The translations under genes were made by a program, and so were the position numbers. From positions 1-49,959 of the forward strand of contig JAHYJO010000011.1 in assembly GCA_019429125.1 (NCBI GenBank): a stretch of DNA of 49,959 nucleotides, given 5' to 3'. The notes beneath the pieces were generated by a model, which ran no database searches, was not told the origin of the DNA, and saw only the letters and a list, made by a program, of their open reading frames with translations. Positions 16,695 through 47,915 of the stretch are shown piece after piece. The DNA comes from Nanobdellati archaeon (GTDB taxonomy: Archaea > EX4484-52 > GLR71). How positions within the stretch are numbered: the first letter of the stretch is position 1; each line of letters begins with the position of its first letter.

Positions 16695-19600
16695 TTAATT
16701 ATGTTCTTTTAGGTGACTTTTGAAGCGCTCGTGGAGCAAGTCAATCTTAGTTCGACCAATAGGTGTGTTATTTGATGCACGCTCTTGTTTGTTATCAATC
16801 TTTTGTGTTGTTCCTTTTTTAAATGAGAATGAATGTAATGTGGTTTTCTTTTTTATTTTCTGGTTAAAGAAGTCACCTTTTGGTGTGTATGTACCTTTTA
16901 CCTTAGGAGGTATTAGCATGTATCCTAAAACTGCTATTAATACTATAAAGAAAAATGATGCCAACAATACTTTCTTAAACAATGATGAAATCTTTGATAA
17001 TTTTGATTCTTCTACAGAGATTAGCTGTTCAGCCTCACGTATAACACTTTCGGCCTTGTCTTTGAGTTTGAGTGCTTCAAATGTGTTTCCTGCCTCAAGC
17101 AATGACCTTGATTCATCAATAAGTTTCTTTGCCTCAAAAATCTTGTCTTTTGCAGTGCCAACCACAGTAGCATTTAAAGCGCCTACATATTTCTGGAATA
17201 TGCTCGGGTCTGAGATGTTTGAAATGAGAGCTTTGATGCGTTCATTGTACTGGTAAATTTGTGTTTCTATAATATCTAATTGTTTGAGACTGTAAATCTT
17301 ATTCGTGTCTGAAAATGAGACTTTTAATGTAAAACTCACTGTTTCATCAATATCGGTCTCATTTGCTGTAAGTCTTGCATTTATTGTGTAATCATTTACC
17401 TGCGCTGTGTCTGGCGCATTCAGGTCTACCATAAATGTTGCTGATGCGTTTGGTGCAAGTTCAACAATGTCTGCATTTATGATATTGTACCAATTTGACC
17501 AGGTAACTCCATCAAGTGTTAGGTATAAATCATAGATTGTTTCTGTTTTCTTATTTGTGACTGTCAGCTCAATATACTCAGTTGTACCTTGTTTTATTAC
17601 TATTAACTTATTGTATTTTATATCAAGATTGTCTGTTGTCTCAATAGTGTCAGTCGTGTTATTTTTTGTATCGGTTGGTTTTGACGAAGGTGTCAATGAA
17701 CCTGAAGGTGAGGTGCTACCTGAACTGCTGTCTGTATATGGTGCTATGTAAATTATTTTGAATGTCTGGTATGTATAACCTGTGATAACACGAGAGTCTA
17801 TAGTGTGGGTTGCTGAAATCTTGACATAATAAGTTCCGGTATGATTTAAGTTTGAGAAAAGGCAGGAATATTCACCGTAGGAATTTACTGCATCTGGGTA
17901 ATATTTACTATCATTCCAACTGCTAGATGCCAGATCTCTTATGAGACAGGTTATGTCAGCATTATCTATAAGAGATTCGTTATCCATATCATCGCTGTAC
18001 TTTACACTACCTGTGACTGTTACATCTTTTGATATGTTAACAGTTGAAGTTATGCCTATGTCTGGCAATGTTGGATCTATTGTTACGTCAAGCCAGACTA
18101 TATGAAGATTTGTTGAGTTTAATATTGTCTTTGTCGTGTTTAAAGGAGAAGTGCCATCAACTGAAATGTTATAGTTCTTTTCGTTGTCGCCATAAGGGAC
18201 TTGCCAGATGAATGAGTAGTCTCCATTTTCATCACTTGTTGTATTTGCTTTGATAGCACCATCTATATAAAGGTTGACAGCTGCATCAAATACTTTTGTG
18301 TTGTTCGTTCCTTCAATTGAACCAGAGATAGTTATCCAATCTTCTTCATTTGCGGTAGAGTCTGTTGCGTTTGTATTTAGTGTGATTGAATTGATTTCGT
18401 TTGTGATATTTATGAAATATTCCTTTTCACCAATATTATTAAATTCATCAAACACTTTGATCATTATGGTATGATTTCCTATTGAAGGATTAGTTATATT
18501 TACATTTGTATCATCCATGTTACCATTTTCATCAGATAATTGTTGAGCTGAACCCACTAGATTATTGTCAAAATATATTTTTACAGATGGCACTCCAATA
18601 ACAGTCTTATTAAGTGGTTTTCCTGTTTTTTTCTTTACAGTCCCAGTAAATGTAAAATTGAAAGTTTCTTGAGCTAAATATTTATCAATACTATCTTTAT
18701 TTATCGCAGTTTGAGAGATAGTAAGGTCAAGCCCATCAGTAATGTTAATATAAATTGTTTTTTTGAAGATATAATCTGATGTCTCGTTTTCAAGAGCATA
18801 TAATTTAATCAAATATTTCCCTTTAGGATAAAGCGTTTGGTTTGCTGAAATCGGCCATATAGAATCAATAAATGTAGAATCAATAAATGTCTCTGAAACA
18901 CCAATTGTGGAAACTGTACTATTTGACCAGACTATTGTATTCTTTGAGCCATTAACAAAAAATATTTCAGTAAATATTTTTGCATCAATTGCTGAGGCAG
19001 CATAAATTGATGTATTTATTGTAAGGTTATCACCATAATTAAAAACAGATATCGTATCTATAAATCCTCGAGGTGGCATACCTTCATCATCATAGACAAC
19101 ATAAAGTTTTGTAATCATATTTGCATCAACAGTGTAATTGATTGCATATAATGTGCGTCCTGATGGAAGTGATGATATATTCTGTAATGCAAATCCTGAT
19201 AAAATTATGCAGGGTCCTAAGAGATTTAAACCAGAAACATTACAATAAATTGTTTCAGTTGGTACTGGATATTTTATTGTAAGATTAGATATTGTAAATT
19301 GTGTAGGGTTTGAAAGAGAAAATTGTTCAGTAATATTATTACCAGTTGTAGGATTTGTGCGCACATCATGTCCCAAAACAGATAAGGTCTCGATAGATAC
19401 ACCCTCAGTAATGAATGTAAGATTCATCTCAGTTGTATGGCTTGAATAAAGTGTAGTGTTAGGAGAATATGGAATTGCAAAAACTACTGATTTTTTATTA
19501 TTTAACATATATTTAAAATCATCCTCCATAATTTTTGAATTTGACACAAGTGTTTCAGATTGATTATATTGTTCAGTTGTACTATCTGTTGTTGTATCAA

Positions 19601-30129: not shown

Positions 30130-30744
30130 TCAAGACTTAATCTTCTTTAGCCGGAAGACGTTTTCTCGCTCCATCTCTTCAAGACGCAGTTTGATGAAGG
30201 CTTCTTGTTCTTTCATCTCAGGGATTGCTTTAAACTCTAGCGCATTTACACGGCGCTTGGTCTTTTCAATCTCTTCAATTAGGCGCCGGACAGATGTCTC
30301 AACTTCGGCTGCAAGGATAATTTTCTGAACTACTTGTTCATAACCGTTTGTTGCTTCATTTATGTAAGGTGAACATTTTACTCGGCCGTAACCACGCTCA
30401 AAAATTGATTTTCTGACGCTGTCTGAACTTATCTTTGGGACAACCACACCCATTATGTTTTTTGTATCTAGAGTTATTACTGGCTTGTCTTTTAGTGCGG
30501 TGGCTGCTGAAATTAAAGCCGTCTTTCCATCAATTGCTTGCGCAATATCTACGTCAGTCTTGGCTTTTGCATAGATCTCATTAAGCTCGGTACGGATGGT
30601 CTTTGCTTTCTTTAAAATCTCAAAAAAATCTAGGATTAGACCGTCTCTTTTTTTCTTGAGAAGATTGTGGCCTGATTTTGCAAGCCGTATCTTCTGCTTA
30701 AGCTTCATCAATTCTGACCTTGTTGGTTTTACTTCAGATGCCAT
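30130..30744 (-). CDS. atpD: A/V-type ATP synthase subunit D
   Basis: VKPTRSEL, GHNLLKKKRDGL and EIEKTKRRVNALE. Confidence 0.98.
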   Translation of the reverse strand: MASEVKPTRSELMKLKQKIRLAKSGHNLLKKKRDGLILDFFEILKKAKTIRTELNEIYAKAKTDVDIAQAIDGKTALISAATALKDKPVITLDTKNIMGVVVPKISSDSVRKSIFERGYGRVKCSPYINEATNGYEQVVQKIILAAEVETSVRRLIEEIEKTKRRVNALEFKAIPEMKEQEAFIKLRLEEMERENVFRLKKIKS

Positions 30745-30760
30745 AGTTTGTCACCAATAT

Positions 30761-32182
30761 TTAAGACTTGTCTTTGTTACCTTCTTTGCCATCTTTTTCG
30801 TTTCCGGATTTAAGATATTTCTCTTTCAAGTCTTTGCTGATTCTTCCAAGCTCATCTTTTGGTATGTTTGAAAGAAGGTCCCATGAAAGTTTAAGTGTCT
30901 CCTCAATAGTCCTGTCTTCATACAATGACTGCTTTACAAATTGGTTCTCAAACTGTTCTGCAAACCTTAAAAGACGCCTGTCTTTTTCTGAAAGCGCTTC
31001 TTCACCGACGATAGCTACAAGACCTCGCAAGTCACGGCCCTCAGCATAGTTTGCATAAAGTTGGTCTGATACTTGCTTGTGGTCTTCCCTTGTTTTTCCT
31101 TTACCAATACCTGAATTCATAAGTCTTGATAGTGATGGTAATACATCTACAGGCGGATAGTTACCTTTCCTGTGAAGCTCACGAGATAGCACAATCTGGC
31201 CTTCAGTTATGTATCCTGTAAGGTCTGGAATTGGGTGTGTTATGTCATCACCTACCATAGTCAATATTGGGATCTGTGTTACTGAACCTTTCTTCCCTTT
31301 GATGATACCTGCACGTTCATAGATCATTGCAAGGTCTGTGTACATGTAACCGGGGTATCCTCGTCGTCCAGGTACTTCTTCTCTTGCAGCACCTATTTCT
31401 CTTAAGGATTCACAGTAGTTTGTCATATCTGTCAATATGACTAAAACATGCATGCCTTTTTCATAAGCTAAATATTCAGCTGCTGTCAATGCCATCCTTG
31501 GAGTTACAAGTCGTTCTACTGCTGGGTCATCTGCAAGATTTAAAAATACTGTTGCGTGTTCAAGAGCACCAGTCTGTTCAAAATCGTCAATAAACTTCTG
31601 TGCATCCTCATTTGTGATACCCATTGCTGCAAAGACTACAGCAAAGTCGCCTTTTTGACCTAATACTTTCGCCTGTCTTGCAATCTGCAATGCTATATCA
31701 TTGTGAGGAAGACCTGAAGCTGAAAATATTGGCAGTTTCTGACCACGGACTAGTGTGTTCATTAAGTCTATTGTTGAAATACCAGTTTGTATGAAATCTG
31801 CAGGGGACTGTCTTGCGTAAGGGTTTATTGCCGCACCTAGGATATCCATCTGTTTTTCTGGTATTATCTCTGAACCGCCATCTATTGGTTTACCTGCACC
31901 GTTAAATATACGTCCTAAGATTTCTTGAGATACTGGCAGGCTGATTGTCTCACCAAGGAAACGTACAGATGACTGCTGGTCAATACCACTTGTGCCTTCA
32001 AATATCTGAACGACTACCATATCATCTGAAGTATCCAGTACCTGACCATTTTTTGTTTCGCCAGATGAAAGCATGACCTTTACAACTTCACCATAACTTA
32101 CAGGGTGAGTCTTTTCTACAAATACTAAAGGTCCTGCAATTCTTTTGATTGTCTTATAATCTTTCATCTTAAACACCATCAT
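30761..32182 (-). CDS. atpB: A/V-type ATP synthase subunit B
   Basis: [25 protein letters not shown] and [19 protein letters not shown]; start may be MKDYKT at 32167. Confidence 0.98.
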
Positions 32183-33963
32183 TCAAGGTTATCAAATTCC
32201 TTGTCCATATCTTTTGTTATCTTATCCAAAAGTCCATTATAATCTTTCTCAAACTTGACATCAGCAATCATGTTTTTTGATTTCATCAAAATGATTGATG
32301 TTGCTGGAATGCCATTATCCAATGCCTCCACGGCACGGGATGCGAAATGAAGTATTATCTCCATAAGTCTGCATGTCTTTTTTGTGTCACAGTATGTGTC
32401 AACGTCGTGGAATGCATTCTGCTGCAGGAAATATTCTCTTATCATCCTTCCAACTTCAAGTGTGACTTGTTGTTTTTCTGGTAATGCATCTGAACCTACA
32501 AGCTGGACAATTTCCTGAAGTTTTTCTTCTTCTTGTAAAATTACCATGAATTCAGATACTAATTCTGGCCATTTAGGTGATACATTTTCTGCAAACCAGG
32601 GGTTCAATGTATTGTTATAAAGACTGTACGAAGTCAACCAGTTTATTGAAGGGAAATGTCTTCTTTGAGCCAGTTTTGCATCAAGTGCCCAGAACGATTT
32701 TGTGACACGCAATGTGTTTTGTGTGACAGGTTCTGAAAAGTCTCCACCAGGTGGCGATACTGCACCGATTATTGTTACTGAACCATCTTTGTCAGTTCCT
32801 AGTGGTGTGACTCGTCCTGCTCGCTCATAAAACTCTGCAAGTCTTGTTGACAGGTATGCTGGGTAACCTTCTTCACCGGGCATCTCTTCTAGACGTGAGG
32901 AGATTTCACGCATAGCTTCAGCCCAACGTGATGTTGAGTCAGCCATCAATGCTACTGAATATCCCATATCACGGTAATATTCTGCGATTGTGATTCCTGT
33001 GTAGATTGAAGCCTCTCTTGCTGCAACTGGCATGTTGGATGTGTTTGCAATCAAAACTGTTCGGTTCATAAGAGCCTTTCCAGTCTTTGGGTCAATCAGG
33101 TGAGGGAATTCAGTCAATACTTCTGTCATCTCATTGCCTCTTTCACCGCAACCAATATATACTATTATGTCTGCATCAGACCATTTTGCTAGAGCTTGCT
33201 GAGTTACTGTCTTTCCTGCACCGAAAGGTCCAGGGATTGCTGCTGCACCACCTTTTGCAAGAGGGAAGAGTGCATCTAAAACTCGCTGACCTGTAATTAA
33301 TGGTATGCTTGGTAGTAGTTTTTTTCGGGATTTTCTAGGGATTCGGATTGGCCATTTATTTGCAAGCTTTAATTGTTTTCTATCCTCTAAAGTGCCTATC
33401 ACTTCTGTAACATTATATTTTCCAGATTTTATGTCTTTTATTTTTGTCTCTTCGAAATTAGAAGGTATCATGATACTGTGCACTACAGTTTCACTTTCTT
33501 GTACTGTACCTATTATGTCTCCACCTTTTACAGTGTCGCCTTTTTTTACAGTTGCATTGAATTCCCATATTTTCTTAAGGTCAAGACCTGAAGCTGTGAC
33601 ACCACGAGTTATGAAGTCACCCATGCTTTCCATGATGACTGGAAGCGGTCTCTGGATACCATCGTAAATGGATCTCAAAAGTCCTGGACCTAGATAAACA
33701 GTTAATGGCGCACCTGTCGTGACTACGGGTTCACCAGGCATTAAGCCTGTTGTATCTTCATAGACTTGGATGACACTCTTGTCACCATCAATCTGTATGA
33801 CTTCGCCCATAAGAGCTTCGTTACCTACATGGACCACATCATACATCTTTGCAGAGATGCCTTTTGCTACAACAACGGGTCCTGCAATCCTGTAAATCTT
33901 ACCATCTGTCTTAGAGATATCTTTCTTGTCTGTCTGTTTGTCCAATACTTTTTTTGCAACCAT
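32179..33963 (-). CDS. atpA: A/V-type ATP synthase subunit A (no intein)
   Basis: [31 protein letters not shown] and DSTSRWAEA; start at ATG 33963 after AGGTGA. Confidence 0.98.
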
Positions 33964-34000
33964 ATCACAAATCACCTAAACTTCAATATTATTAATTGTT

Positions 34001-34170
34001 TTATCTGTTATCATTATCTGTTATCATTATCTGTTATCATTATCTGTTATCATTATCTGTTATCATTATCTGTTATCATTATCTGTTATCATTATCGGTT
34101 ATCATTATCGGTTATCATTATCTGTTATATTGTTGTATCTATTATCATTATCTGTTATTGTTGTATCATA
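34001..34170. repeat. 13-bp tandem array TTATCTGTTATCA between atpF and atpA
   Basis: Seven perfect units (34001-34091), two units with T>G (34092-34117), then degenerate partial units. Confidence 0.97.
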
Positions 34171-34188
34171 ATTTTAACAGCAATATTA

Positions 34189-34500
34189 TCATTCTTTGTT
34201 CCAGACATCTACACCGATTGCTTTTTTTATTTGTTTTCTTAGGCGATCGTCGGATGTTGTCTCTTCACTGACCATAACTGTTACTGGCCTTACCGAACTG
34301 TCAAAATTGTCTTGCAACCGTTGAGGTAACGCTTCAACTGTTGCTTTGTGCATGATAAGGATGCCTATGTTTTTGTTCTTTAGGGCTTCAGACAATTTAG
34401 TTGCGACATCATTATCGTCTGCAACTATTGTGTCTTTAATCCCTGCAAGCTCAAAACCTATGATAAAATCTGGTTTTCCTAAAACTACTATGTCTGGCAT
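34189..34500 (-). CDS. atpF: A/V-type ATP synthase subunit F
   Basis: IVVLGKPDFIIGFELAGI ... LRKQIKKAIGVDV. Confidence 0.95.
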   Translation of the reverse strand: MPDIVVLGKPDFIIGFELAGIKDTIVADDNDVATKLSEALKNKNIGILIMHKATVEALPQRLQDNFDSSVRPVTVMVSEETTSDDRLRKQIKKAIGVDVWNKE

Positions 34501-34530
34501 AAATATCACATGTATTATAATATTACAATA

Positions 34531-35628
34531 TTAAATTATCAAGTTTTCCTCAATGAACTTTTCTGGTAGGTTGAGTGATTTTGAGCGAGATATAAGCTTA
34601 AGGTTTCTTATCTCTACCTCTTTTGCAAGTATGTATCCTAATACTGGCGCTATCGTAAGTGGATGCTTGTGCAATAACAGGAATGCTTTTTTCATTAGTT
34701 TCTTGTCAAGTCCGCGACGGATAACCTTAAGAGATCCTTTTAGAGCTTCATCAATTCCTGATTTAATTTCAACTGAATATGAGGTTTTATTTATTAGGAT
34801 ATCGAGTGCGCCTTCAATGTCTTTTGCAGATGCTGCGGATTCAAGGACAGGTAATGATATGTCTGCAGCAGGGGTTATTAATAGTTGCATGATATCTTTT
34901 TTTTCAAGACCTTCATTTTTCATGATAAGCAATGTGTTGATGTTTAAAATATCTATCTCATTCCTTAAGAATGTCTTGAATTCAGATGCATGTTTTGGAA
35001 GTTTATCAGCTATACACATAAGGTATCTGTAATAGTTTATGTCAAGCCAGTTCTCAACAGATGCCAGAGTTAAGTCATCACCTTTAGGTTTGGGTATTGA
35101 TGATGTTGCGTGGGGTAAAATATTTTGGAACATTGGGTCTTCAACGATGTCAGATATTGTCTTTTTCTTTAGCAAATCTAATAGGTTTTTCTTATTTACG
35201 TTGCAACCAGACATTAATCTTAAAGATATCTCATCTTTGGGTATCTCTGAATTTAGACACCTAAGTATTGTTTTTATGTTTTCTATATCAATCCTTAACA
35301 TATATTTTTGTATCAATTCTTTTGTGTCGCCCTTTGAAAGGTGTATCACTTTCTGAAAACATTTTGAGGCATTATTGTTTAAAGCAACCTCAATTAAGTC
35401 AGCACCTGCGTATCTTACTGCAAACTCATCTATTTGGGCTTTGTATTCACCCTCTTCTAAGAAATGAGATATTTCAGCAGAGGTCATCTTTAACAATCTA
35501 TGATATTGATCTTTGGAAATTAGTTTTGAAGACATGACACGGACTCTTGTATTTAAGTAAGGGTCTCTGTGTAGTTTCAATTTATCTATAGTTATTGTCT
35601 TGTCTTTTTTCATCTTAACCAAAACCAT
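34531..35628 (-). CDS. atpC: A/V-type ATP synthase subunit C
   Basis: PYLNTRVRVMSSKL, DIENIKTILR and YILAKEVEIRNL; operon position. Confidence 0.95.
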   Translation of the reverse strand: MVLVKMKKDKTITIDKLKLHRDPYLNTRVRVMSSKLISKDQYHRLLKMTSAEISHFLEEGEYKAQIDEFAVRYAGADLIEVALNNNASKCFQKVIHLSKGDTKELIQKYMLRIDIENIKTILRCLNSEIPKDEISLRLMSGCNVNKKNLLDLLKKKTISDIVEDPMFQNILPHATSSIPKPKGDDLTLASVENWLDINYYRYLMCIADKLPKHASEFKTFLRNEIDILNINTLLIMKNEGLEKKDIMQLLITPAADISLPVLESAASAKDIEGALDILINKTSYSVEIKSGIDEALKGSLKVIRRGLDKKLMKKAFLLLHKHPLTIAPVLGYILAKEVEIRNLKLISRSKSLNLPEKFIEENLII

Positions 35629-35650
35629 ATATTATATATCTAACATCTAT

Positions 35651-36211
35651 CTAGTTGAAAAGTATATCTGCTACAGATTTCAATGTGTCTTTTCTTATAG
35701 TCTCTAAAAGCAGGTCAAATGAATTGTCAATACGGACAGTACCATCACTATTTTCTATTATGATGCCACCTAACATGTCTTTTTCTGAGACAACCATATC
35801 TTTTGCAAAAGGTTTTACAAGTGACAGGTCATTTTTGTTGACATAGACTCTTTTTGCATCAGGCATCTGTTCCAAAGCTTCATACATAAGTTTTTGTAGC
35901 AGGGTCTTTCTTGTGTCTGCATCAAAATCAGTAATCTTTAATTTAACAGCTGCATAAGTCTTGTCAATTATGTCTTTTTTTGCATCAAGTAATGGTCTCT
36001 TGACCGCAAGACTAGCTGATGCAAGTTCTTTTTTGTCCAATGTTACAATTTGCGCTTCAGTCTTTGCTTTAGCTACATTAATCAATTCTTCTGATTTTTT
36101 CTTTGCGTCAGTAAGAATGACTTCCGCCGTTGCCTTTGTCTCAGCTTCAAGATTTTTTATCCTGTCTTCTACATCTGCTAAAATCTGTCCGGATACGTTC
36201 TCTAAACTCAT
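35651..36211 (-). CDS. atpE: A/V-type ATP synthase subunit E
   Basis: MSLENV..QIL coiled coil and LGGIIIENSDGTVRIDNSFD. Confidence 0.95.
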   Translation of the reverse strand: MSLENVSGQILADVEDRIKNLEAETKATAEVILTDAKKKSEELINVAKAKTEAQIVTLDKKELASASLAVKRPLLDAKKDIIDKTYAAVKLKITDFDADTRKTLLQKLMYEALEQMPDAKRVYVNKNDLSLVKPFAKDMVVSEKDMLGGIIIENSDGTVRIDNSFDLLLETIRKDTLKSVADILFN

Positions 36212-36296
36212 TAAAATCATCCCTTTTAATATTAAAACTAATGATGGTCCTTAAGACCATCAATCAATTGCAAATCTTATACTTATCAATCCGTAA

Positions 36297-36509
36297 TCAA
36301 GCACCAAGAATCATGTACGAAATAACGAAACCAAAAAGCACAATTGTCTCTGGAAGCACAGTCATGATTAGACCTTTTACGAATAAGTCTTCGTTCTCTG
36401 CAATTGCACCGACGGCTGCGGTGCCAATCTCTTTCTCTGCAATAGCTGCTGCAATGGCTGAAAGACCAATCGCGAGCGCTGCTGCAATAGCTGTTATAGG
36501 TTCTACCAT
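36297..36509 (-). CDS. atpK: A/V-type ATP synthase proteolipid subunit K(c), single hairpin
   Basis: AEKEIGTAAVGAIAE ... LIMTVLPETIVLFG with the ion-carrying Glu. Confidence 0.97.
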   Translation of the reverse strand: MVEPITAIAAALAIGLSAIAAAIAEKEIGTAAVGAIAENEDLFVKGLIMTVLPETIVLFGFVISYMILGA

Positions 36510-36558
36510 ATTTTTCACCATTTTATTTAGTTATTTTTTAAATTAAATTAAATATCAT

Positions 36559-36590
36559 ATTTAGTATCTATTTAGTATCTATTTAGTATA
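36559..36590. repeat. 11-bp tandem repeat ATTTAGTATCT (about 3 units) between atpI and atpK
   Basis: Read directly. Confidence 0.8.
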
Positions 36591-36596
36591 TATCAC

Positions 36597-38450
36597 TCAA
36601 GCGCGTCTTCCAAACGGCATATACTTCTGACCGCCACCCTGATAAAATTTCATGAAAAATTCTACATAATGAAGTCTCATAGAATGGATGAAAGGAGAGA
36701 GGAAACCAAGGAAGATTGCAATTGAGTGTCCGGCAACAAGGATAATTGTTCCCATAACCAGACCAATTCCACCTGAGCTAAATGCCATGCCTGCCATCTC
36801 GTTAACCACTAATGCCAAGATTGCTGAAGCCAGACCTACTGCCATAAGACGTGAGTAGGATAGTATGTTTGCAACTATTGATGGCAGTTCAAACAGACCT
36901 TTTAGACCTTCACCAATAGTTATCATTATTACTGACACAAGCAGGATTGCCACACCAGCGGTCATGTTCCCTAAAGCTAACAAGACTCCGCCTGCCTGAA
37001 GGAACATCCAGCTTGCTTTTTCAAGGATTGCAGCTTTCAGTCCGTGCGCTTTTAGCATGTTATAAAAACCAATCATAAGACCCATGTTGACATGGACAAT
37101 ACCCATACCTATGGATAAATTAAGAAGAGTTATCGGATGATTGAGCCTGTGAAGTATTGGTGTCATCTCATAACCTAATATATGTTCTGCACCGAAAAAT
37201 TCACCGAAGACGATACCGAATACCGCTGTCATAAATGAGGCGAACATTAATACTGAAAGGACTGATCTTATCTCGTCACCTTTTGCTTTCATACGTATTA
37301 TGAAAAATAATGCTAATGTCAGAAGACCATAACCTAGGTCACCTAACATAAAACCAAAAAATAATGGGAATGTTAAGAACATGAAAAATGTAGGGTCAAT
37401 CTCGCGGTATGATGGACGTGAATATAAGTTAATCAGGAACTCAAACGGTTTTACTCCTTTTGGATTTTTTAGTTCTATTGGTGCACCATCTTCTGCTTTT
37501 CTAGACTTTATATAAATTTTTTCGTCTGTTTTTTTTCTGAGCTCGGATTCCATTGACTTAAAATCTTCTTGTGGAACCCAGCCCTCAATGACGAAAGCAT
37601 TTTTACTTTCTGCAAATCTCAGAGGTGCTTCCCCTACCTCAATGTCACGTGAAAAATTGGATTCGTTGTCTATTATGAAAGATGAATATTTATCACCTAA
37701 AGCATTCATCTCACTTTTTATCTTATTTTTTTCAGCTGTCAGGTGCTCATATTCATCTGAAATCGTTTTTAAGACATTTTCGGATTTCCCTTCAAACTCT
37801 TCCAGACATCTTAAGTTTATCTGAACAAAACCATTGTTTGAAAGAAGAGAGGATGTCGCATCAGTCTTGTCTTTTACCACAAAGAGGGCAATCACTTGTC
37901 TGCCTAAATAGTTAGCATGGAACATCTCTGTGTTTTCTGTAATTAATAATAATTCTTTTTTGAATTTAGATATGTCTATATTTTTGGGCAGATAACCGAC
38001 CTTGTAAGAGAGACTATCATATTGAGTAAACACTTTCCAATCAAGACCTAAACTTGATATAGGTGCTACTATATCTTCTTTTGCTTTAAGGAGTGATAAG
38101 GAATCATTAATATATTTTATCTTGTCTATAGATTCTACAATTTGCACATCTATTTTATTTATCTGTTCAGATATAGCTTTTTGATTTGGTTTGTCAATAG
38201 ATACTACTTTATTGCCTTTACTTTTGATAATGTTCAAATGTTTTTTTATAGAACGAAGTTTGATTATGTCTTCAGAGAGATTAGATGCTTTTTTGGTAGG
38301 TGTACCAATATCTAAAACGGTTTCATCAGAAGGTTTTGTATAATCATCAATGTGTAAAATACCTTTATCATAAAAAAATGAGACAGCTGTAGCCATTATG
38401 CTCTTTGGTCCTGCAACGGTCACTTTGCACATCTTTTTTGGTTTAAGCAA
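36597..38450 (-). CDS. atpI: A/V-type ATP synthase subunit I(a)
   Basis: P.Y.EIDPT, FFGFMLGDLGYG, LSYSRLMA (essential Arg) and HSMRLHYVEFF; TTG start. Confidence 0.97.
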   Translation of the reverse strand: MLKPKKMCKVTVAGPKSIMATAVSFFYDKGILHIDDYTKPSDETVLDIGTPTKKASNLSEDIIKLRSIKKHLNIIKSKGNKVVSIDKPNQKAISEQINKIDVQIVESIDKIKYINDSLSLLKAKEDIVAPISSLGLDWKVFTQYDSLSYKVGYLPKNIDISKFKKELLLITENTEMFHANYLGRQVIALFVVKDKTDATSSLLSNNGFVQINLRCLEEFEGKSENVLKTISDEYEHLTAEKNKIKSEMNALGDKYSSFIIDNESNFSRDIEVGEAPLRFAESKNAFVIEGWVPQEDFKSMESELRKKTDEKIYIKSRKAEDGAPIELKNPKGVKPFEFLINLYSRPSYREIDPTFFMFLTFPLFFGFMLGDLGYGLLTLALFFIIRMKAKGDEIRSVLSVLMFASFMTAVFGIVFGEFFGAEHILGYEMTPILHRLNHPITLLNLSIGMGIVHVNMGLMIGFYNMLKAHGLKAAILEKASWMFLQAGGVLLALGNMTAGVAILLVSVIMITIGEGLKGLFELPSIVANILSYSRLMAVGLASAILALVVNEMAGMAFSSGGIGLVMGTIILVAGHSIAIFLGFLSPFIHSMRLHYVEFFMKFYQGGGQKYMPFGRRA

Positions 38451-39004: not shown

Positions 39005-40024
39005 TTGACAATAGAAACTAGAAAGATACAGGCAACAGGTGGTGGAGGTACATACATACTCTCACTTCCTAAAAAATGGATAAAAAAGTACAATCTTAAG
39101 CGACAGGATGACATTAACATATTTTCTAAAGATGATGGCGCACTTGTGCTTTTGCCTGCGATAAAAAGAGAGAACAAAAATATAATAATAGATGCAGACA
39201 GCATGTCTACAAGATATATCATAAGGCGTATGATTGGCACATACATAAACGGTGCTGACCAGATTAATATAATCGGACCTATCAGTCGGGAAGACAGAAG
39301 ACTTATCAGGTCGGCGGCAAAAGATATGCTCATAGGTGTCGAGATTTCAGAAGATCAAGACAAGATTTCAATACAGTGTATAATAGACATATCAAAATTA
39401 TCGAACAGGAAAATATTTGAAAACGCATACAAAGCAACCAACTGGATGTATATCACTGTGTTTTCTGCGCTTTATGAGAGAGACAGCGAGCTTGCAAAAG
39501 ATGTAATAGAACAAGACAGTGATGTTGACAAGCTGACCATACTTGCCATAAGATTATTGAACCTTGCTGCAAAAGACCCAAGCTTTTCTGAGTGTGTCGA
39601 GATTGCAGGGTGCGACGCATTGAATTACAGGGCACTTATAGACCATATCGAGACTATGGCAGACCATTGCGTAAATATTGCACAGGCAATAACTGATATT
39701 ATAGATAAAGAGATACCGACAGACCTGATAAATAAAATTATTGAAACCTCTAAAAAAGTCAATAAAATATATGCAGAGGTATTCTATGCATTCTGGTATA
39801 GGAAACCTGAACTTGCAAATAAGACTATTGAAGACGCGACAGAAATTGAGACTGGTATGCTATCTATTGAAAACAAAAGCAAGATACTCACAGATAAAAG
39901 GATTACAGACACAGCTGATGTTGTCGGAGCAATTGCTATAATTATAGATAATATAGGATCAATATTACATATATCCAAAAATATAGGTGAGCTTGTGATT
40001 GATATGGAAGAGGAGTGCAAATAG
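39005..40024 (+). CDS. phoU: AbrB-PhoU-type regulator (archaeal phosphate uptake regulator family)
   Basis: N-terminal ETRKIQATGGG.TYILSLPKKW (AbrB/SpoVT-like), IGTYINGAD, and PhoU-like VIEQDSDVDKL and IETMADH. Confidence 0.9.
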   Translation: MTIETRKIQATGGGGTYILSLPKKWIKKYNLKRQDDINIFSKDDGALVLLPAIKRENKNIIIDADSMSTRYIIRRMIGTYINGADQINIIGPISREDRRLIRSAAKDMLIGVEISEDQDKISIQCIIDISKLSNRKIFENAYKATNWMYITVFSALYERDSELAKDVIEQDSDVDKLTILAIRLLNLAAKDPSFSECVEIAGCDALNYRALIDHIETMADHCVNIAQAITDIIDKEIPTDLINKIIETSKKVNKIYAEVFYAFWYRKPELANKTIEDATEIETGMLSIENKSKILTDKRITDTADVVGAIAIIIDNIGSILHISKNIGELVIDMEEECK

Positions 40025-40592: not shown

Positions 40593-41636
40593 TTAATTTG
40601 AGTTTGTTGAGTTTGGATTGTTTGTATATTTGTCAGAACTTAAAATCTTTTGTTTAGGGTGGAGGCTATACCCTGAAGTTGAATCTTTTTTGTGGGGTTT
40701 AGATTCTGCATTGAATTGACTTGCAATGATTACTATGATGTTTTTCAAGAATAAATTAAGCATCTCTAAAAACATGAATATCGTAAGGAATGTTATGTGA
40801 GGATAGAACTGCTTGAATAATGTCAATATTTTTTGTGTAGAATCTATCGAATCTTTTTGGTTTTCATCAAAAGTTGATAGTTGCATATCAATTGATGATT
40901 TTGCCAGTTTGTCAATTTCTGCCATGCTGCTGTTTATTGCATTGAAACATCTCATTTTTTCGGAGGTTGTAAGGTCTGAGGGGACACTGTAGATACCATA
41001 TAATACTGATGTCTCTATAGCTTCTATCTGCGCATAGTTAGCCTCTTTCTGCTGGTCAGACATCTGCTGCTGTAATGAGTCCATATCAGAGATATCTATA
41101 CCACCCATAGATTGACTCATTGATGACATCTCTTTCTCTGCATAAGAAGGATTTACAACAAGAACCATAAATACTGTAAGAGCTAATGAGATGTTTAAGA
41201 TTGTGAGACCTTTTGAGACCACACCACTTAATATATTATATATTTTGGGTCTTTTTAATTTTTCTTTTTCTTTTCTTATAGATGTCAAGACTTGAAAATA
41301 TGCGATAAAAATACCTAACGAGAATATGATACTTGGTACTGAAAATGAATGAGATATCACGATGATTATTGAAATTAAAGCGGATATTAGAAGTATTGAG
41401 TTATCATGTTTTTCATTATATGCATAGATTGAAAAAAAAGCAAAAGATGTACAGAACATGATTAAAGATAGACCAACTAATAACCAACTTACCCCAATAC
41501 TTGTGCCTGCGAAAATTTCAGAGATAAAACTCATTGGAGATAAGAGTCTGTTGAAAGAAAAACCAGAACCCAACATCAAAATTATGAAAATGACTGAAGA
41601 TACAAAATAAACTATCATGTTATTATTATATTTCAT
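40593..41636 (-). CDS. Multi-pass membrane protein of unknown function
   Basis: About five N-terminal hydrophobic segments, a helical soluble loop and one more TM; starts 25 bp after the giant surface protein gene. Confidence 0.8.
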   Translation of the reverse strand: MKYNNNMIVYFVSSVIFIILMLGSGFSFNRLLSPMSFISEIFAGTSIGVSWLLVGLSLIMFCTSFAFFSIYAYNEKHDNSILLISALISIIIVISHSFSVPSIIFSLGIFIAYFQVLTSIRKEKEKLKRPKIYNILSGVVSKGLTILNISLALTVFMVLVVNPSYAEKEMSSMSQSMGGIDISDMDSLQQQMSDQQKEANYAQIEAIETSVLYGIYSVPSDLTTSEKMRCFNAINSSMAEIDKLAKSSIDMQLSTFDENQKDSIDSTQKILTLFKQFYPHITFLTIFMFLEMLNLFLKNIIVIIASQFNAESKPHKKDSTSGYSLHPKQKILSSDKYTNNPNSTNSN

Positions 41637-41661: not shown

Positions 41662-44600
41662 TTATTTATGGCTGTACTTCTTGTGAAGTTCCAGCTCATA
41701 TTTAGTCTTGAAATCTTTACTGCACATACCACATCGTGTCTTTGAGATCTCAAAATGCCGTATCTTACTTGGTGCGGTAGGCATTGATGATGTTTTTCTT
41801 GAAAGGCTACTTGCACCTAAAGGAGTTATTTTTACATGAGACTTTTTTTGGTAGGCGCTATATGTCGAATTATGATGAGGTTTTGGAGCATAGAAATCTT
41901 GCGAGCCTGTAAACCTTTCGTTTGATAGTTTGGTCTGATGACTGTGCAAGTTATCCATCTTTAGATGGAACTTGTGTTTCAAGACATGAATTTTCCTCAA
42001 TAGTTTTACTTCAAAGACAGGTTTGTGATGGTAACTGTGGATGTTTGGACTCCCTGATTGAGAGGAATTATTATTTTGTGATTTTTTTGGAGATATGAAG
42101 GGGATAAGGCGTAACTGTATCAATTTAGCCATGTTGCCTTTTTCAAATATGTGATAACCTTTCGGATTGGACTGGTCATACAATAAGTATGCACCTATTG
42201 CAATTAATAATAATGTGAGTACAGTAAGTATATATCTGAAACTGCCACCTTGCTTTAATATAGTACCATCCATCAAAGCATTTGCTTCTATTATCAATCT
42301 TTCAATCTCTGCCTTTTTCTCATAGGCTGTTAAGAAATCTCCTGACTTCGTTGCATTTTTAAGTTCACCATAAAGGATGTCAATCTGATTTATTGTGTTA
42401 TTTACTAAAGTATAATTTGTGCTATTAAGATGATTTTCTATATCTTCAAATTGTTTTTTTAATTTGTCAATATCATCGTCTAAAACTGGCATCCAATCAT
42501 CAATTTCCTGTATAGATTCTGCGTTTGGGAGGATTGATAATACAAAGGTTGTGGAAGCTGTCAATTTATTGGAATTGAATGTGACTGTGATGTTCTTCCT
42601 ACCCACTGGAGCCTCATCTGATATATCTAGAAGTACTATTATTTCTTGTGGCTCGTCATCTAAAATCTTGTCTGGAAGAGTTGTCAAAATCTTGTATGAT
42701 GAATTTTCACCAAGACCAACAAGTATGAAATCAAAATCTTTGATTATTTTGGTTCCGTTATTTTTATACTTTATTGTTATTGTCGATGTATTGCCCTGCA
42801 CAATCTCTAGATTAGGTATTTGGGTAAAATCGATTGAATATATGTAATTTATGCATTTGTGGGAAGAATAATATCCATCATCACATGGTACAAATTTGCA
42901 GACACTGCCCACACAGGCTTCATCATAGTCGCATGCGCTCACATCACAGGTTGATATTAGAGTGGTAGGAGTTGCAGCTACTACTTCCTCCGGAGGTGTG
43001 ACTGGTGCTGTGGTTGTAAGATCTATTATTTTTGATAAAGAAGATGTAGTTCCATTGAACCAGAATTTTCCACTTGTAACTGTGGCTGTAACTGTACAGT
43101 CTGTTTTGTTTGCAATTGGGTCAACTGTCCAAGTTGCAGTTCCGGATGCACCGGGAGCAATTGATGCTATTGTCTTTGCTGCATCACCAAATATTTTAAG
43201 ATAAGATGTTCCGCATGTTGTAAGTGTAAGAGTTGCTGTCAAGGTTCCTGACGATTCTAAACCATTATTTGTTATTGTTATTCCATAAGTGTCATAGCCT
43301 GTGAAAGTATAAACATTTATATTTTCTGGAACTTTACCAGTTGTCCAAATTGGTACTGAAAGATACGGTGCGTATATATCTAGGTCTTGTGTGTATGTTG
43401 CGGAATAGTTTCCGGAGGTTACTGTTGTATCCAATTTTAGATTACCACCTACCATGTTTGAGGGTAAGGTAATATTTAAAAGATAAGTTCCAGGTGTTGC
43501 AGTTTCAGTAAAATTGTTTAAGGATGAGAGTATGGATTGAGATGCACCGTTTTTTATTGCTAATCCTGTTAGGTTTGAGGATTTCATCCCTGTGACAGGA
43601 GTTCCATCTCGGTAAGATATATCCATCTCGAAAGTTGTTGTGTTTCCAGGATAAAGTTTTTCAACTGATGGGTGTGTCATCTTTATGTCAAAGGTGTCTG
43701 TTATTATCAAATTAAGTGTGACTGAATAATTATCTATTGGTTCACCGTTTGATGTTGTTATATTGAATTTTGTTGAATAAGTTATGCTTTTTGTGTGGTT
43801 GGAGACGTTGAAAGTCAAGATTAATGACTTGTTTGCGTTTGCAGTTATGTCACCGAAAGATGCATTGTTGCCTGTGACTGTGATACCATCTGTTCCGTTT
43901 TTGATTGTGATTGTTATGTTTTCATTTCCGTTTGTGAAATTCAATGATGAAAAATTCATGTTGACATTACTTAATGTTCCGCCATTGTTGTTCTTTAGTA
44001 TTAGACTGTAATCTTTTTGTCCGCTCTCTGTGTTTGCATAAAATGTATAGGTTGCTGTGCTACTTGTAATTGGAGTTGATACTACATCAGACAATATCCA
44101 TAACTCCGGTGCATTGACTGAGAATGTTATGTTTTTTGTGATTGTATTGTTTATGTTTGAATATGTCAAGGTTCCTATATAATTTCCAGCAGGGATTTTG
44201 TCTGGGACTGTTATGTTGTAATTGAATATCTTTGAGGACTTGTTTTCTAAAATTTGAGTTGTATTGAAATCACTTGATATCCAGGCAGATTCAGTTAATC
44301 CAATTTCAACTGTTATGTTTACAGGAAGACTTGACTGGTTCATTGTATTTGCATCAATTATCAGCTCAGTTATTCCCGGAGCGTTTGCCAAAGGTTGTGT
44401 ATATGTTATGTTTCCAAGGGATGTGTTATAAGATAATGTGACTGTGATGTTATTTGTTGTTGTATTTACAGGTAACGCAAAATAAAATGATTTTGTCTCA
44501 AGTCTTGTGAAATTGTTTGTGAAATTGTATACTTTTTTTAAAGTTATGGTCTCTGTAATTGCGGACTGGTTGTTGTGTGCATTGTTTGTCAGGTTTACGG

Positions 44601-47046
44601 AATGGGTTGAAGTCTCTGCAACTGCAATTGATCCGAAGTCAAGGTCTGTTGATATGTTTGTTTCAAAGTCTTGGATGAATGTTGTGTTTGAAAGTGCGTT
44701 GTCTGTAGTTATAGTTTCTAAAGTACCATTTGTTCCTGTTATGTTTGCTGAAAAATAATGAGTGCCTTTCGTCACATTCCATGCAACTGTTGATTCAATA
44801 GTTATTGGTGAAGTTGTTGTATTGAAAATGTCTATATAGGTCTGAGTTGACAGTTTTGTTCCATCAACATAAAAACTAATATTTACATAAGATACATTGA
44901 AGCCGTAAGTTGCTATTGTTGCGTTTATTGTTGTTGTGTCACCTGTGTATAAGGCTGATGTGTCTGCGAGATATACACCTGTAATTTTTAGGTTAGGTCT
45001 TAAATTGAAAATGTGCGTATGATTTGTTGAATGACCGTATGCGTCTGTTGCGTTGATTGTTATGTTGTGAGAGTCGTTTTCAATCCAGTTTATTTGTGGG
45101 AAATCTGCGACCCCATCTTTTGTTTCATTGTAAAGAGAGATGTAAGCTCCACCGTCAATTGAGTATGTTACATTTGCATCTTCATCTGTTGATATGTTAA
45201 TCAGGTCTGTTGAATTTGAGTAAGAATATGTGTTCTCTGGAGAGTTGATTATTATTGTTGGTGCGAGTGTGTCTATTACTGCAAGGTCAATTGAAAGAGA
45301 ATCATTGTAGTTGCCGGACTTGTCTGTGGCATTTATCTTTATGGTGTATGTGCCGTTGTTTATTGAGTTTGATACGTTTAAGAGGTAAGTGTATAAATTA
45401 TTCCCTGCAGAAGTCAGAAGCTGTGTTGCATTGCCACCCAGCACACTTAGGTTTGCATAGACTGTGTCAAGTTCAAGGTCTGTGATGTTTGCGGTGATGA
45501 TTGTTGTGTCTGTGCCTGTTGCATTGATTTGGGTTTTTGATAGGTTGACTGAAAATGCTTTAGGGATTGTGACATCTGTGACATTTAGGGTTATGTATTC
45601 TGTGTTGTTGATGTTGTTGTTTTTGTCGGTTGCTGTGATGTTAAGACGGTATGTGCCTGAACGGACTGTGTCTGGGATTGAAATCATCCAAGAGTAAATT
45701 GAATCATTTAATGTTGAATCATTTGATAGAGGAAATGCATTTCCTTTATCATACATTCTTTGCTGTGAGGAATATCCAATAGATAATAAATTGATATAAA
45801 CTGATTCCAAACTATCACCATCAATTTCTATACCTTCCAAATCAGTGACGTTGACAGTTAAAGTAGTGCTGGTCCCATTAGCTGGAACAACACTCAACGT
45901 CGAATTCATATCAATTACATAAGGTGCTGTTACGTCGATAACTGTTATTGATAATGATTGTGAACTGTTTTCGTTTGAAGAATTATCTGTTGCATTAACA
46001 TATATATTATATGTGCCGTTTTTGAATGTCGCATCTATTGTCATGTTGAATGTCCAGATATTGTCTGATGCATTTGTATCACCGTGTGTGCCGTCATTGT
46101 ACATCTGTTGGTCACCTGCGCCACCTAACCCAGTCAGATTTATTGTTACATTGTTTAATTCTGTGTCTGTGACTGTTGCAGTAAATATTAATTGGTCTGT
46201 GCCGTTTGCATTGACTGATAAATCTCCTATTGTCGTTAATGAAACTGAAGGCGCTGTGATGTCATTAATTGTCAAGTTGATGTACTGAGTATTGTTGTAA
46301 TTTCCGAATTTGTCTGTCAGGTTTAATTCCAGTGTTTTTAGACCGCTGATTAAAGCTAGGTTTCCTGAAAGGTTGTAATAATATAAATTGTTTGTATCGT
46401 TTTTTGTCATTGCAGTCTTATTAGAATATGAAACGCCAAGAGAGGATAGGTTTAGTTTTACAGTATCTATGTTTGCATCTGAGACATTAACTGTTAAAAA
46501 TATGTAAGATGCTGAGGTTGCGTTTAATTGAATATTTTGCGATGTGTTTTCTATCTCAATCTGTGGTGCTTTGCCATCAACACCAGTTGTGATGTTTGTT
46601 GAATTTGTGCTTCCGTTAAGATCAGTTGTTGTGATGTTCCAGAAATATACTATTTCATCTGTCATTGTCGGGGATGTTGTATTGAACCAGATGTTAATCT
46701 CTTCTGTTGCATTGGCTGTTTGCGATGTACAAGTTATTAATATATTGGTAGCGGTTGTATTTGAACATGTCCAGTTAGGACCGTTAGTGCCTATTGTGGT
46801 ATTATCTAGGAGGAAGGATGAATTGAATTCTATTGTAGTCTTGTTGATTAACTCATTTGTTGATATTGTAAAGTTGTATAGGTTTGTGGTGTTTGAATCT
46901 GTCCAATTTGAAACTGAAGGTTCTGAAATCGTGAGTACTGTTGAATCAAGGTTGTGCAAAGAAGACGTTAAGGTTGATAAAAAAAGGATTGAAAGGAGAA
47001 TTAATGATAAGAATGTCCATTGTTTTAAATTGGTATATTTGCGCAT
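41662..47046 (-). CDS. Giant surface glycoprotein (1794 aa) with Ig-like repeats, TM and cytoplasmic C2H2 zinc finger
   Basis: Signal peptide, repeated domains ending D.TAP, MYNDGTHGD..ASDNIWT motif, Cys-rich module, helical stalk, TM, and C-terminal CGMC-SKDFKTKYELEL-HKKYSH. Confidence 0.9.
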   Translation of the reverse strand: MRKYTNLKQWTFLSLILLSILFLSTLTSSLHNLDSTVLTISEPSVSNWTDSNTTNLYNFTISTNELINKTTIEFNSSFLLDNTTIGTNGPNWTCSNTTATNILITCTSQTANATEEINIWFNTTSPTMTDEIVYFWNITTTDLNGSTNSTNITTGVDGKAPQIEIENTSQNIQLNATSASYIFLTVNVSDANIDTVKLNLSSLGVSYSNKTAMTKNDTNNLYYYNLSGNLALISGLKTLELNLTDKFGNYNNTQYINLTINDITAPSVSLTTIGDLSVNANGTDQLIFTATVTDTELNNVTINLTGLGGAGDQQMYNDGTHGDTNASDNIWTFNMTIDATFKNGTYNIYVNATDNSSNENSSQSLSITVIDVTAPYVIDMNSTLSVVPANGTSTTLTVNVTDLEGIEIDGDSLESVYINLLSIGYSSQQRMYDKGNAFPLSNDSTLNDSIYSWMISIPDTVRSGTYRLNITATDKNNNINNTEYITLNVTDVTIPKAFSVNLSKTQINATGTDTTIITANITDLELDTVYANLSVLGGNATQLLTSAGNNLYTYLLNVSNSINNGTYTIKINATDKSGNYNDSLSIDLAVIDTLAPTIIINSPENTYSYSNSTDLINISTDEDANVTYSIDGGAYISLYNETKDGVADFPQINWIENDSHNITINATDAYGHSTNHTHIFNLRPNLKITGVYLADTSALYTGDTTTINATIATYGFNVSYVNISFYVDGTKLSTQTYIDIFNTTTSPITIESTVAWNVTKGTHYFSANITGTNGTLETITTDNALSNTTFIQDFETNISTDLDFGSIAVAETSTHSVNLTNNAHNNQSAITETITLKKVYNFTNNFTRLETKSFYFALPVNTTTNNITVTLSYNTSLGNITYTQPLANAPGITELIIDANTMNQSSLPVNITVEIGLTESAWISSDFNTTQILENKSSKIFNYNITVPDKIPAGNYIGTLTYSNINNTITKNITFSVNAPELWILSDVVSTPITSSTATYTFYANTESGQKDYSLILKNNNGGTLSNVNMNFSSLNFTNGNENITITIKNGTDGITVTGNNASFGDITANANKSLILTFNVSNHTKSITYSTKFNITTSNGEPIDNYSVTLNLIITDTFDIKMTHPSVEKLYPGNTTTFEMDISYRDGTPVTGMKSSNLTGLAIKNGASQSILSSLNNFTETATPGTYLLNITLPSNMVGGNLKLDTTVTSGNYSATYTQDLDIYAPYLSVPIWTTGKVPENINVYTFTGYDTYGITITNNGLESSGTLTATLTLTTCGTSYLKIFGDAAKTIASIAPGASGTATWTVDPIANKTDCTVTATVTSGKFWFNGTTSSLSKIIDLTTTAPVTPPEEVVAATPTTLISTCDVSACDYDEACVGSVCKFVPCDDGYYSSHKCINYIYSIDFTQIPNLEIVQGNTSTITIKYKNNGTKIIKDFDFILVGLGENSSYKILTTLPDKILDDEPQEIIVLLDISDEAPVGRKNITVTFNSNKLTASTTFVLSILPNAESIQEIDDWMPVLDDDIDKLKKQFEDIENHLNSTNYTLVNNTINQIDILYGELKNATKSGDFLTAYEKKAEIERLIIEANALMDGTILKQGGSFRYILTVLTLLLIAIGAYLLYDQSNPKGYHIFEKGNMAKLIQLRLIPFISPKKSQNNNSSQSGSPNIHSYHHKPVFEVKLLRKIHVLKHKFHLKMDNLHSHQTKLSNERFTGSQDFYAPKPHHNSTYSAYQKKSHVKITPLGASSLSRKTSSMPTAPSKIRHFEISKTRCGMCSKDFKTKYELELHKKYSHK

Positions 47047-47129: not shown

Positions 47130-47915
47130 TTATCTATTTAGTCCGGGAATCTTTGATACAAAAGTTTTCAAGAAACTACTAGTTTCGGTTTCAGTACCAC
47201 ATAATTTGACGGCAAGTTGTGAGATTGCAATAGACGACGGACATCGTGGACTATAATCAATCACAGATTTACCAAAGACTGTTGATTGTTTTACATTCTT
47301 GTGGAACGGTATTTTTGAGATAACCTTTGAATCCATGAATTCTGATATCTGCTTATCTGTAAGTTCCAGATATTCACCGCGTGTCATGTTTAAGACAATA
47401 CCTTTTGTTGGTTTTCCTAGATTAGTTGCAAGACGTTTTACCAGTGCTGCATTTGACACAGATGGTATGTCTGGATTTGTGACAATCAGTACTGAATCTG
47501 ATGCATTTATCGCTTCCTTGACCTCGTCGTCTGCACCGGCGGCTGTATCTATCAATATGAAATCAAAATGACCTATAAGATTTGATATAACTCCAGAGAA
47601 ACCGCGCATACTAGAACCTGCAACATTAATGGATGCAGGCAAGACATGAAAACCGCAGGGGTGCATATATATAGCATTGTCAAAAGTATCTTTTCCTGAA
47701 AGGACTGAATTTAGATCTGCCTGTGACTCAAGCATATTTAAATGAATACCCATGTTTGCCCCTGAAATGTTTGCATCGATTACAAGAACTGATTTGCCTT
47801 GTTTTGAGATGCTATCTGCAAGATTTGCAGTAACAGTAGTTTTTCCCACACCACCTTTTCCAGATATTACAGATATAACTTCAGTCATCTTGTTCACATC
47901 ATCCACAATAGTCAC
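47130..47915 (-). CDS. minD: MinD/ParA-family ATPase (archaeal MinD-like)
   Basis: SGKGGVGKTT deviant Walker A, DANISGANMGIHL, DTAAG and amphipathic C-terminus. Confidence 0.9.
   Translation of the reverse strand: MTIVDDVNKMTEVISVISGKGGVGKTTVTANLADSISKQGKSVLVIDANISGANMGIHLNMLESQADLNSVLSGKDTFDNAIYMHPCGFHVLPASINVAGSSMRGFSGVISNLIGHFDFILIDTAAGADDEVKEAINASDSVLIVTNPDIPSVSNAALVKRLATNLGKPTKGIVLNMTRGEYLELTDKQISEFMDSKVISKIPFHKNVKQSTVFGKSVIDYSPRCPSSIAISQLAVKLCGTETETSSFLKTFVSKIPGLNR

Follow-up and report, generated by a model that had tools for sequence, protein, structure and literature searches.

The window, positions 1 to 49,959 of contig JAHYJO010000011.1 of a Nanobdellati archaeon (assembly GCA_019429125.1), belongs to a genome (G000) of 1.16 Mb that is 93% complete in 32 contigs. 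On its minus strand, to which the coordinates below refer unless stated otherwise, positions 41662..47046 hold a single open reading frame of 1794 amino acids (aa) plus stop. Its product, P0001, is predicted to be a giant type-I surface protein of this small-genome DPANN archaeon, heavily N-glycosylated and S-layer-like or adhesin-like in character. P0001 runs through a putative ectodomain (residues 31-1602, 1572 aa; 42241..46956) and a single predicted transmembrane (TM) helix (residues 1603-1623; 42178..42240) into a tail of 171 aa (residues 1624-1794; 41665..42177), at the extreme end of which lies a classical C2H2 zinc-finger motif (C1772 to H1793; 41668..41733). The gene of a MinD/ParA-family ATPase, P0003, is found 83 base pairs (bp) upstream, and that of a polytopic membrane protein, P0002, 25 bp downstream. 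The parts of this arrangement, namely a stalked surface protein of immunoglobulin (Ig)-like repeats, a C2H2 finger and a MinD-family neighbour, are known; the combined architecture is new, and none of the papers listed in full-text literature searches deals with an archaeal C2H2 finger anchored in the membrane, or with the gene set to which P0001 belongs.

The terminal C2H2 finger

The tail ends in CGMCSKDFKTKYELELHKKYSHK, within which the finger reads C-GM-C-SKD-F-KTKYE-L-EL-H-KKYS-H; the protein terminates one residue past the last His, with the stop codon at 41662-41664. The pattern C-x2-C-x3-F-x5-L-x2-H-x4-H, which the initial annotation had placed at the C-terminus, is exact in the translation, in its coordinates as well as in its classical spacing, and the key residues are C1772, C1775, F1779, L1785, H1788 and H1793. 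The genome holds 9740 frames, counted from stop to stop, with a length of 40 aa or more; in these, a loose C2H2 pattern gives 12 matches and a strict one gives five, two of which lie in one CYHC low-complexity frame. Occurrence in a single genome is therefore insufficient as proof of a finger, and the proof is its conservation.

Orthologues were sought with the last 312 residues of P0001 in 41 related genomes (labelled by codes of the type G001 to G041), which together with the window's own make up a sample of 42 genomes of the order. Eight of these form the genus of the window (its own genome and G001-G007), G008 (93% complete) represents genus g2, and G009 (72% complete) is the one genome of genus g3; the family (f1) is represented by 10 genomes in all. 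The search gave matches over the full tail within the genus, and in another genus a match limited to the finger. The finger stands at the C-terminus of the orthologue in the translated loci of G001-G005, G007 and G009, and is seen in G006 via a fragment at a contig edge. The TM segment and the finger are conserved together in orthologues, a point on which the initial annotation had made its proposal depend. In an alignment of eight tails (A2; window, G001-G005, G007 and G009), the residues C175, C178, F182, L188, L190, H191, K193, Y194 and H196 are invariant in all eight, with tail identity to the window falling to 41-44% within the genus and to 21% in the other genus. Over the 26 codons of the finger, the proportion of synonymous differences (pS) in the 21 within-genus pairs is 0.34-0.99, which is near saturation, and that of nonsynonymous differences (pN) is 0.00-0.21; in pairs with the other genus, the corresponding values are 0.79-1.43 and 0.29-0.38. 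The finger is thus real and under purifying selection, and is not a product of chance. The possibility that it arose as a fusion or assembly artefact, in which a small C2H2 gene was joined to a giant gene, was considered and ruled out, as the same single open frame is found in nine genomes.

Structural prediction agrees with this assignment. AlphaFold2 run on A2 gives a mean predicted local distance difference test score (pLDDT) of 58.3 overall, as expected for a disordered tail, and a terminal unit at model residues 171-197 (pLDDT 80-88) with bridges at 174 and 181 and a helix at 185-195, corresponding to a beta-beta-alpha fold. A Foldseek search produced no significant E-value (best 1.2); among the rows listed, nearly all are C2H2 fingers, and the best of them superpose 19-26 columns at 0.4-1.1 A. 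The finger fits the pattern of the Pfam zf-C2H2 family (PF00096), C-x2-4-C-x12-H-x3-5-H with Phe and Leu in the core. In the Pfam search that the initial annotation had called for, the family matches eight of eight orthologous 45-aa pieces at E <= 1, with a best value of 1e-5; the window copy stays below the curated cut-off (discussed below). A profile of the tail searched against 1.84e9 representative proteins returned 38 at E <= 0.001, six of which are family members or fragments of them (P0005-P0010). The remaining 32 match through the finger part only, in 2-10 stretches each and at E 1e-10 to 1e-3, and the three of these that were inspected are multi-C2H2 proteins. Against the sequences of the PDB, the tail profile gave marginal C2H2-finger matches only (best E 0.01), and the look-alikes of the tail in the Atlas, which are small C2H2 proteins, some of them archaeal, all score at or below 0.82 and serve as leads only. 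A finger of this class would bind one zinc ion through its two Cys and two His.

Anatomy of P0001 and distribution of its tail

P0001 contains only two hydrophobic 19-mer segments when scanned with a 19-residue Kyte-Doolittle window. The first, at residues ~10-30 (46957..47019), follows the basic start MRKYTNLKQ and is a putative signal peptide or N-terminal anchor; the second is the TM helix at residues 1603-1623, which AlphaFold2 also predicts as a helix (model residues 4-29, pLDDT 75-92). The segment between them is sequon-rich and acidic: it holds 107 NxS/T sequons compared to 45.5 +/- 5.6 in composition-preserving shuffles, carries a net charge of -85, and consists of Thr to 15.8% and Asn to 11.8%. 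The tail has a net charge of +21 and 15 His, is mostly predicted to be disordered, and contains three sequons against 1.6 +/- 1.2 in shuffles, so that the enrichment is confined to the ectodomain. Based on the positive-inside rule and this asymmetry of sequons, the tail is predicted to be cytoplasmic and not extracellular, and P0001 as a whole likely comprises a secreted N-glycosylated ectodomain, a C-terminal TM helix and a cytoplasmic tail. The large glycoprotein ectodomain, single TM segment and basic Ser/His-rich tail described in the initial annotation are therefore borne out by the reading frame, hydropathy, sequons and charge.

The ectodomain bears Ig-like repeats of ~100 aa near residues 160-600, a cluster of six Cys at residues 1367-1398, and a C-terminal module in which a beta-sandwich is followed by a helical stalk ahead of the TM helix; a helical, heptad-like stretch before the TM helix was judged by eye. 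DUF4625 is the only family to pass its Pfam cut-off in P0001 (34 bits vs 27), and weak matches below cut-off to Big_13, Y_Y_Y, MG2 and NPCBM_assoc point to Ig-like beta-sandwich repeats. Residues 91-266 and 1415-1700, which represent an N-terminal domain and the C-terminal anchor, are paralogous (E 4e-5 and 2e-4) to P0004 (1762 aa; 16695-21983, minus strand), another giant surface protein encoded in the window, which has a NEW3-like domain, a TM segment and a basic tail of 71 aa that lacks a finger. Proteins of 1000-2100 aa across the order share this anchor module (E 1e-16 to 1e-4). When residues 1380-1794 were used in a word-indexed search of 5.8e9 proteins, the window protein itself and a single relative, P0005, were all that came back. 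In layout, P0001 resembles SlaB of the Sulfolobales and tetrabrachion of Staphylothermus, which combine secreted beta-sandwich domains rich in N-glycosylation with a helical stalk and a C-terminal TM segment; these have short cytoplasmic ends, from which P0001 differs in its 171-aa tail with a folded domain. A study of related lineages from non-hypersaline settings (PMC9563170) mentions S-layer family and hypothetical signal-peptide proteins in supplementary tables only, which may already include the family of P0001.

From the membrane, tails of the genus show a conserved juxtamembrane motif, a basic His-rich helix, a variable linker rich in Pro, His and Thr, a basic stretch, and the finger. 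The His-rich helix (residues 1677-1711; 41914..42018) is conserved within the genus only, as seen in the alignment of TM-plus-tail pieces (A1); AlphaFold2 predicts it as a helix at 80-114 with pLDDT ~70, and the alignment with P0004 pairs it with the last part of the tail of that protein. Two further roles were considered for this block and rejected. A second, degenerate finger (YHH-x3-F-x5-R-x2-H-x3-H) is contradicted by the AlphaFold2 model, which shows one continuous helix with no hairpin, and is also not conserved in the second genus; an amphipathic membrane-binding helix is not compelling, with a hydrophobic moment of only 0.38. The basic stretch (41734..41793), a conserved extension directly upstream of the finger in A1 and in the finger profile A5, has the consensus VRPVSKMxKxFExSKTR. 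Aligned TM-plus-tail pieces measure 191-261 aa among orthologues, with linker length varying between them. The linker of G002 (locus L007, G002:C20) has been expanded by short repeats, giving a piece of 261 aa, whereas the six remaining finger-bearing orthologues have 191-231 aa; its length can thus vary freely between two conserved ends.

The length of the tail sets P0001 apart from its finger-less relatives, as had been suspected from what is usual for surface proteins. Tails in other families of the order and in P0004 have 20-71 aa and net charges of +4 to +11, and that of G008 has 145 aa and a charge of +10, all without a finger; the tails of the finger-bearing proteins examined have 170-206 aa and charges of +21 to +30. 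The finger is therefore carried by an extension, specific to this lineage, of a basic tail that is otherwise short. In the 42 genomes of the order, A5 finds matches at E <= 1e-21 in nine (eight of eight in the genus, including the window's own, and the one genome of g3). In G008 or the other seven families it gave no match, the values there being E >= 0.006. A scan of metagenome contigs with A2 yielded 144 pattern matches and no confirmed relatives.

Several individual loci deserve mention. Contig L017, which contains a clear orthologue of the surface-protein gene, sits in a record titled 'Campylobacterales bacterium' and is probably mis-binned. A 79-aa frame on contig C13 of G000 (minus strand, 45810-46046) begins with a C2H2 motif and looks helix-turn-helix-like by eye in the rest, and a 48-aa frame at the end of contig C26 (G000 C26:46130-46273, plus strand) has a classical C2H2 motif. 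The tail finger may have been recruited from small C2H2 genes of this type. In G009, a 740-aa protein unrelated to the surface protein (L039; G009:C44:1-2220, plus strand) has a C2H2 motif in its interior, at residue 598, ahead of a Lys/Ala-rich end.

In one explanation the finger has no ligand. It could act as a zinc-stabilised cap against degradation, as an aid to sorting or folding, or as a metal buffer together with the His residues of the tail. The richness of the tail in His, the location of the finger at its very end, the small size of the clade and the existence of relatives that lack the finger are all compatible with such a role. Purifying selection, however, also acts on surface residues of the helix (K, Y, E and L) and on the upstream basic flank, which is more than a cap would need, and we regard this explanation as distinctly improbable.

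The MinD-linked gene set

P0003 (261 aa; 47130..47915) is assigned to its family by Pfam matches to ParA (6e-20, 72 bits), AAA_31 (7e-19, 69 bits) and CbiA (1e-17, 64 bits), all above cut-off, and its deviant Walker A motif SGKGGVGKT, of the form K-G-G-x-G-K-T/S, is invariant in the MinD alignment (A4). P0002 (347 aa; 40593..41636) belongs to no named family: a Pfam search gave no match below E 0.03, the closest cluster in the Atlas, with a score of 0.94, is that of a hypothetical protein from DPANN, and its AlphaFold2 model has a mean pLDDT of 59.9 and a predicted template modelling score of 0.34, values too low to base a fold search on. Homologues of P0002 in the same position are present in G007, G004, G008, G036, G010 and G015, with seven invariant columns among them.

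The order MinD, surface protein, membrane protein recurs in G007, G004 and G008, the surface protein of G008 being without a finger. G036, G010 and G015, which represent three other families, have an extra TM-anchored protein of ~800 aa inserted in the set. The set is thereby seen in at least four families (L024, G036:C186; L025, G010:C4; L026, G015:C8; L013, G008:C8), its members being a MinD-like ATPase, the ~800-aa TM-anchored protein (with none in family f1), a TM-anchored protein of 1056-2117 aa, and a polytopic membrane protein of 300-352 aa. In G009, the finger-bearing gene is directly followed by a TtuA-like gene, and a relative of P0002 was not found in this 72%-complete genome. As G008 and the three families have the set without the finger, and G009 has the finger without the adjoining membrane gene, the two are independent of each other; the finger has thus been added, in this lineage, to an older gene set that it does not organise. 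Of the three-gene module postulated in the initial annotation, the linkage is conserved order-wide, but the module is not centred on the finger. The order-wide set is itself a candidate envelope-positioning system, one that seems not to have been described.

A maximum-likelihood tree of 28 MinD paralogues from 10 genomes, drawn with a midpoint root for display only, places the linked MinDs of families f2, f6 and f7 in one clade (support 100/100). Those of family f1 are found among unlinked paralogues in the second major clade (98/99), and none of the four MinD paralogues of the window genome falls in the f2/f6/f7 clade. To judge from this tree, the MinD of family f1 looks like a non-orthologous replacement that kept the linkage. 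That linkage has been kept by different paralogues argues for a functional tie between MinD-type ATPases and the surface proteins, a tie which does not involve the finger.

These observations bear on a further explanation, in which the finger, perhaps with the basic helix, is a protein-docking module that places or clusters the surface protein, for example at a pole or at a site of host contact, the candidate partners being the neighbouring MinD-like ATPase, a protein of the cytoskeleton or of cell division, or a further P0001 molecule. The linkage of a MinD paralogue to genes of TM-anchored surface proteins in four families, along with its retention by non-orthologous paralogues in f1, suggests functional coupling. 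Precedents exist as well: Haloferax MinD4 and MinD2 are ParA/MinD ATPases reported to position membrane cargoes (PMC11588486; bioRxiv 10.1101/2020.04.03.021790; review PMC11407121). P0001 shares with these systems a MinD-family ATPase gene beside that of a basic-tailed membrane protein as putative cargo, the linkage occurring with and without the finger. Single C2H2 domains can dimerise (PMC12774644), and the Haloferax membrane anchor CdpC has zinc-ribbon domains that bind FtsZ1 (bioRxiv 10.64898/2026.07.16.738847); in both CdpC and P0001 a zinc module is held at the membrane, a zinc ribbon in the former and C2H2 in the latter, without homology. However, the MinD linkage without a finger in G008, G036, G010 and G015 indicates that MinD does not need the finger, and the membrane protein gene is not beside the finger gene in G009. 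Complex prediction with two MinD, two ATP and tail residues 27-197 of A2 gave scores of 0.00 and 0.01 compared to a mark of 0.32, which, obtained without controls, are evidence neither for nor against. Protein docking is held to be a possible role for the finger, somewhat less likely than the tethered binding of nucleic acid described below; were it correct, the finger would help to explain how surface structures of DPANN cells are positioned by MinD-type ATPases.

Candidate functions of the tethered finger

The finger most likely binds nucleic acid while still tethered to the membrane, a reading to which we assign a probability of roughly 40%. Its background is the order-wide set, which combines a polytopic membrane protein and a MinD-like ATPase with one or two TM-anchored surface proteins whose cytoplasmic tails are normally short and Lys-rich. 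Two genera have lengthened this tail to a disordered, strongly basic leash ending in a basic stretch and a single C2H2 finger. Held at the membrane, the finger would fasten the cytoplasmic end of P0001 to nucleic acid, with the nucleoid as the most plausible target, through binding of low sequence specificity that could draw on one finger, its basic flank and, if the stalk oligomerises, the avidity of several tails. The effect would be to couple an envelope or host-contact structure to the interior of the cell.

This reading is based on the polycationic leash, the conserved basic flank beside a single finger, basic contact positions, the precedent of AFV1p06, and a stalk that is likely oligomeric. 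Within the finger, seven of eight tails have K or R at the position of the Lys that precedes the core Phe by two residues, and the Lys between the two His is invariant, positions that we take to be those contacting the backbone (phosphate) in DNA-binding fingers. Binding of DNA by a single finger next to a basic flank is known from GAGA factor. In archaea, classical C2H2 fingers, which are of the DNA-binding type of eukaryotes, are rare and come from small soluble proteins. AFV1p06, a single C2H2 protein of an archaeal virus, binds zinc and DNA (PMC3541406). With AFV1p06 and the classical TFIIIA/Zif268-type C2H2 proteins (PF00096), P0001 shares the spacing, the predicted beta-beta-alpha fold, the basic flank by a single finger and an archaeal lineage; it differs in that its finger lies at the cytoplasmic end of a 1794-aa membrane-anchored protein, theirs being small and soluble.

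Several points weigh against nucleic acid as the ligand. Both the ligand and the oligomerisation of the stalk are presumed, the latter judged by eye only, and a lone finger rarely gives specific DNA binding. The window copy scores 14.9 bits as the whole protein, 17.1 as a 192-aa tail and 21.5 as a 45-aa piece against the curated zf-C2H2 gathering cut-off of 25.2. The helix of the finger has T/N/S at -1, E/A at +3, an invariant Leu at +6 and a conserved ELELH face; Leu at +6 and Glu at +3 and +5 are atypical for base reading, and this acidic-hydrophobic face presumably resembles a protein interface more than a base-reading surface, which favours the protein docking described above. Finally, the finger-bearing clade is very small, comprising nine of the 42 order genomes and six clusters among the 1.84e9 representatives, and as G008 lacks the finger, its function is dispensable for such close relatives. 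If tethered binding of nucleic acid nevertheless holds, it would show coupling of the envelope to the chromosome or to gene expression in a genome-reduced, probably host-attached archaeon.

The receptor-like architecture, with a large ectodomain, one TM helix and a cytoplasmic module of nucleic-acid type, also suggests a released regulator, in which contact would trigger cleavage near the membrane and the freed tail would act on transcription or RNA, as in regulated intramembrane proteolysis. A long flexible tail would be free to leave the membrane, and the genome also encodes small putative regulators with C2H2 motifs. Against this, the window shows no protease gene in linkage with P0001, whose surroundings comprise MinD, P0002, SAICAR synthetase, a protein of PhoU/AbrB type and ATP synthase. 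A conserved cleavage motif was not seen, none having been searched for; the ectodomain is of the structural Ig-repeat and stalk type common to finger-less paralogues, unlike a known sensor domain, and close relatives do without the finger. Release of this kind is considered improbable, and the tests made lend no support to contact sensing, to release of the tail or to its binding of MinD or P0002, all of which the initial annotation had raised. Explanations beyond the four named, which are tethered binding of nucleic acid, protein docking, a released regulator and a finger without ligand, take up the remainder of the odds.

Nucleic-acid-type folds at the membrane are known from the one-component regulators ToxR and CadC and from RodZ, which, like CdpC, binds a cytoskeletal protein and not DNA; in these regulators and RodZ, the cytoplasmic module is N-terminal. 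P0001 has the opposite topology, with the module at the C-terminus, and a C2H2 fold compared to their winged helix or helix-turn-helix, along with a giant ectodomain and no homology to them. The broader proposal made for P0001, that a protein of host or surface contact is linked by a leashed finger to the nucleoid or RNA, either as a chromosome tether at the contact site of an ectosymbiont or with a tail freed upon contact as a regulator, is judged unlikely. Should this outside-in link be true, P0001 would be the first case in prokaryotes of a C2H2 nucleic-acid binder held at the membrane, with a receptor logic so far known from eukaryotes.

As for the rest of the window, Rfam and tRNA scans gave no match, and a promoter and terminator scan gave counts at the level of shuffles, with a bacterial model that is not valid for archaea. 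The gene set is followed closely downstream by the plus-strand gene (39005-40024) of a PhoU-domain protein whose N-terminus is of AbrB/MazE type, and the operon of an A-type ATP synthase (subunits I, E, C, A and B) occupies 30130-38450 on the minus strand; all of these are housekeeping genes of an ordinary archaeal kind.

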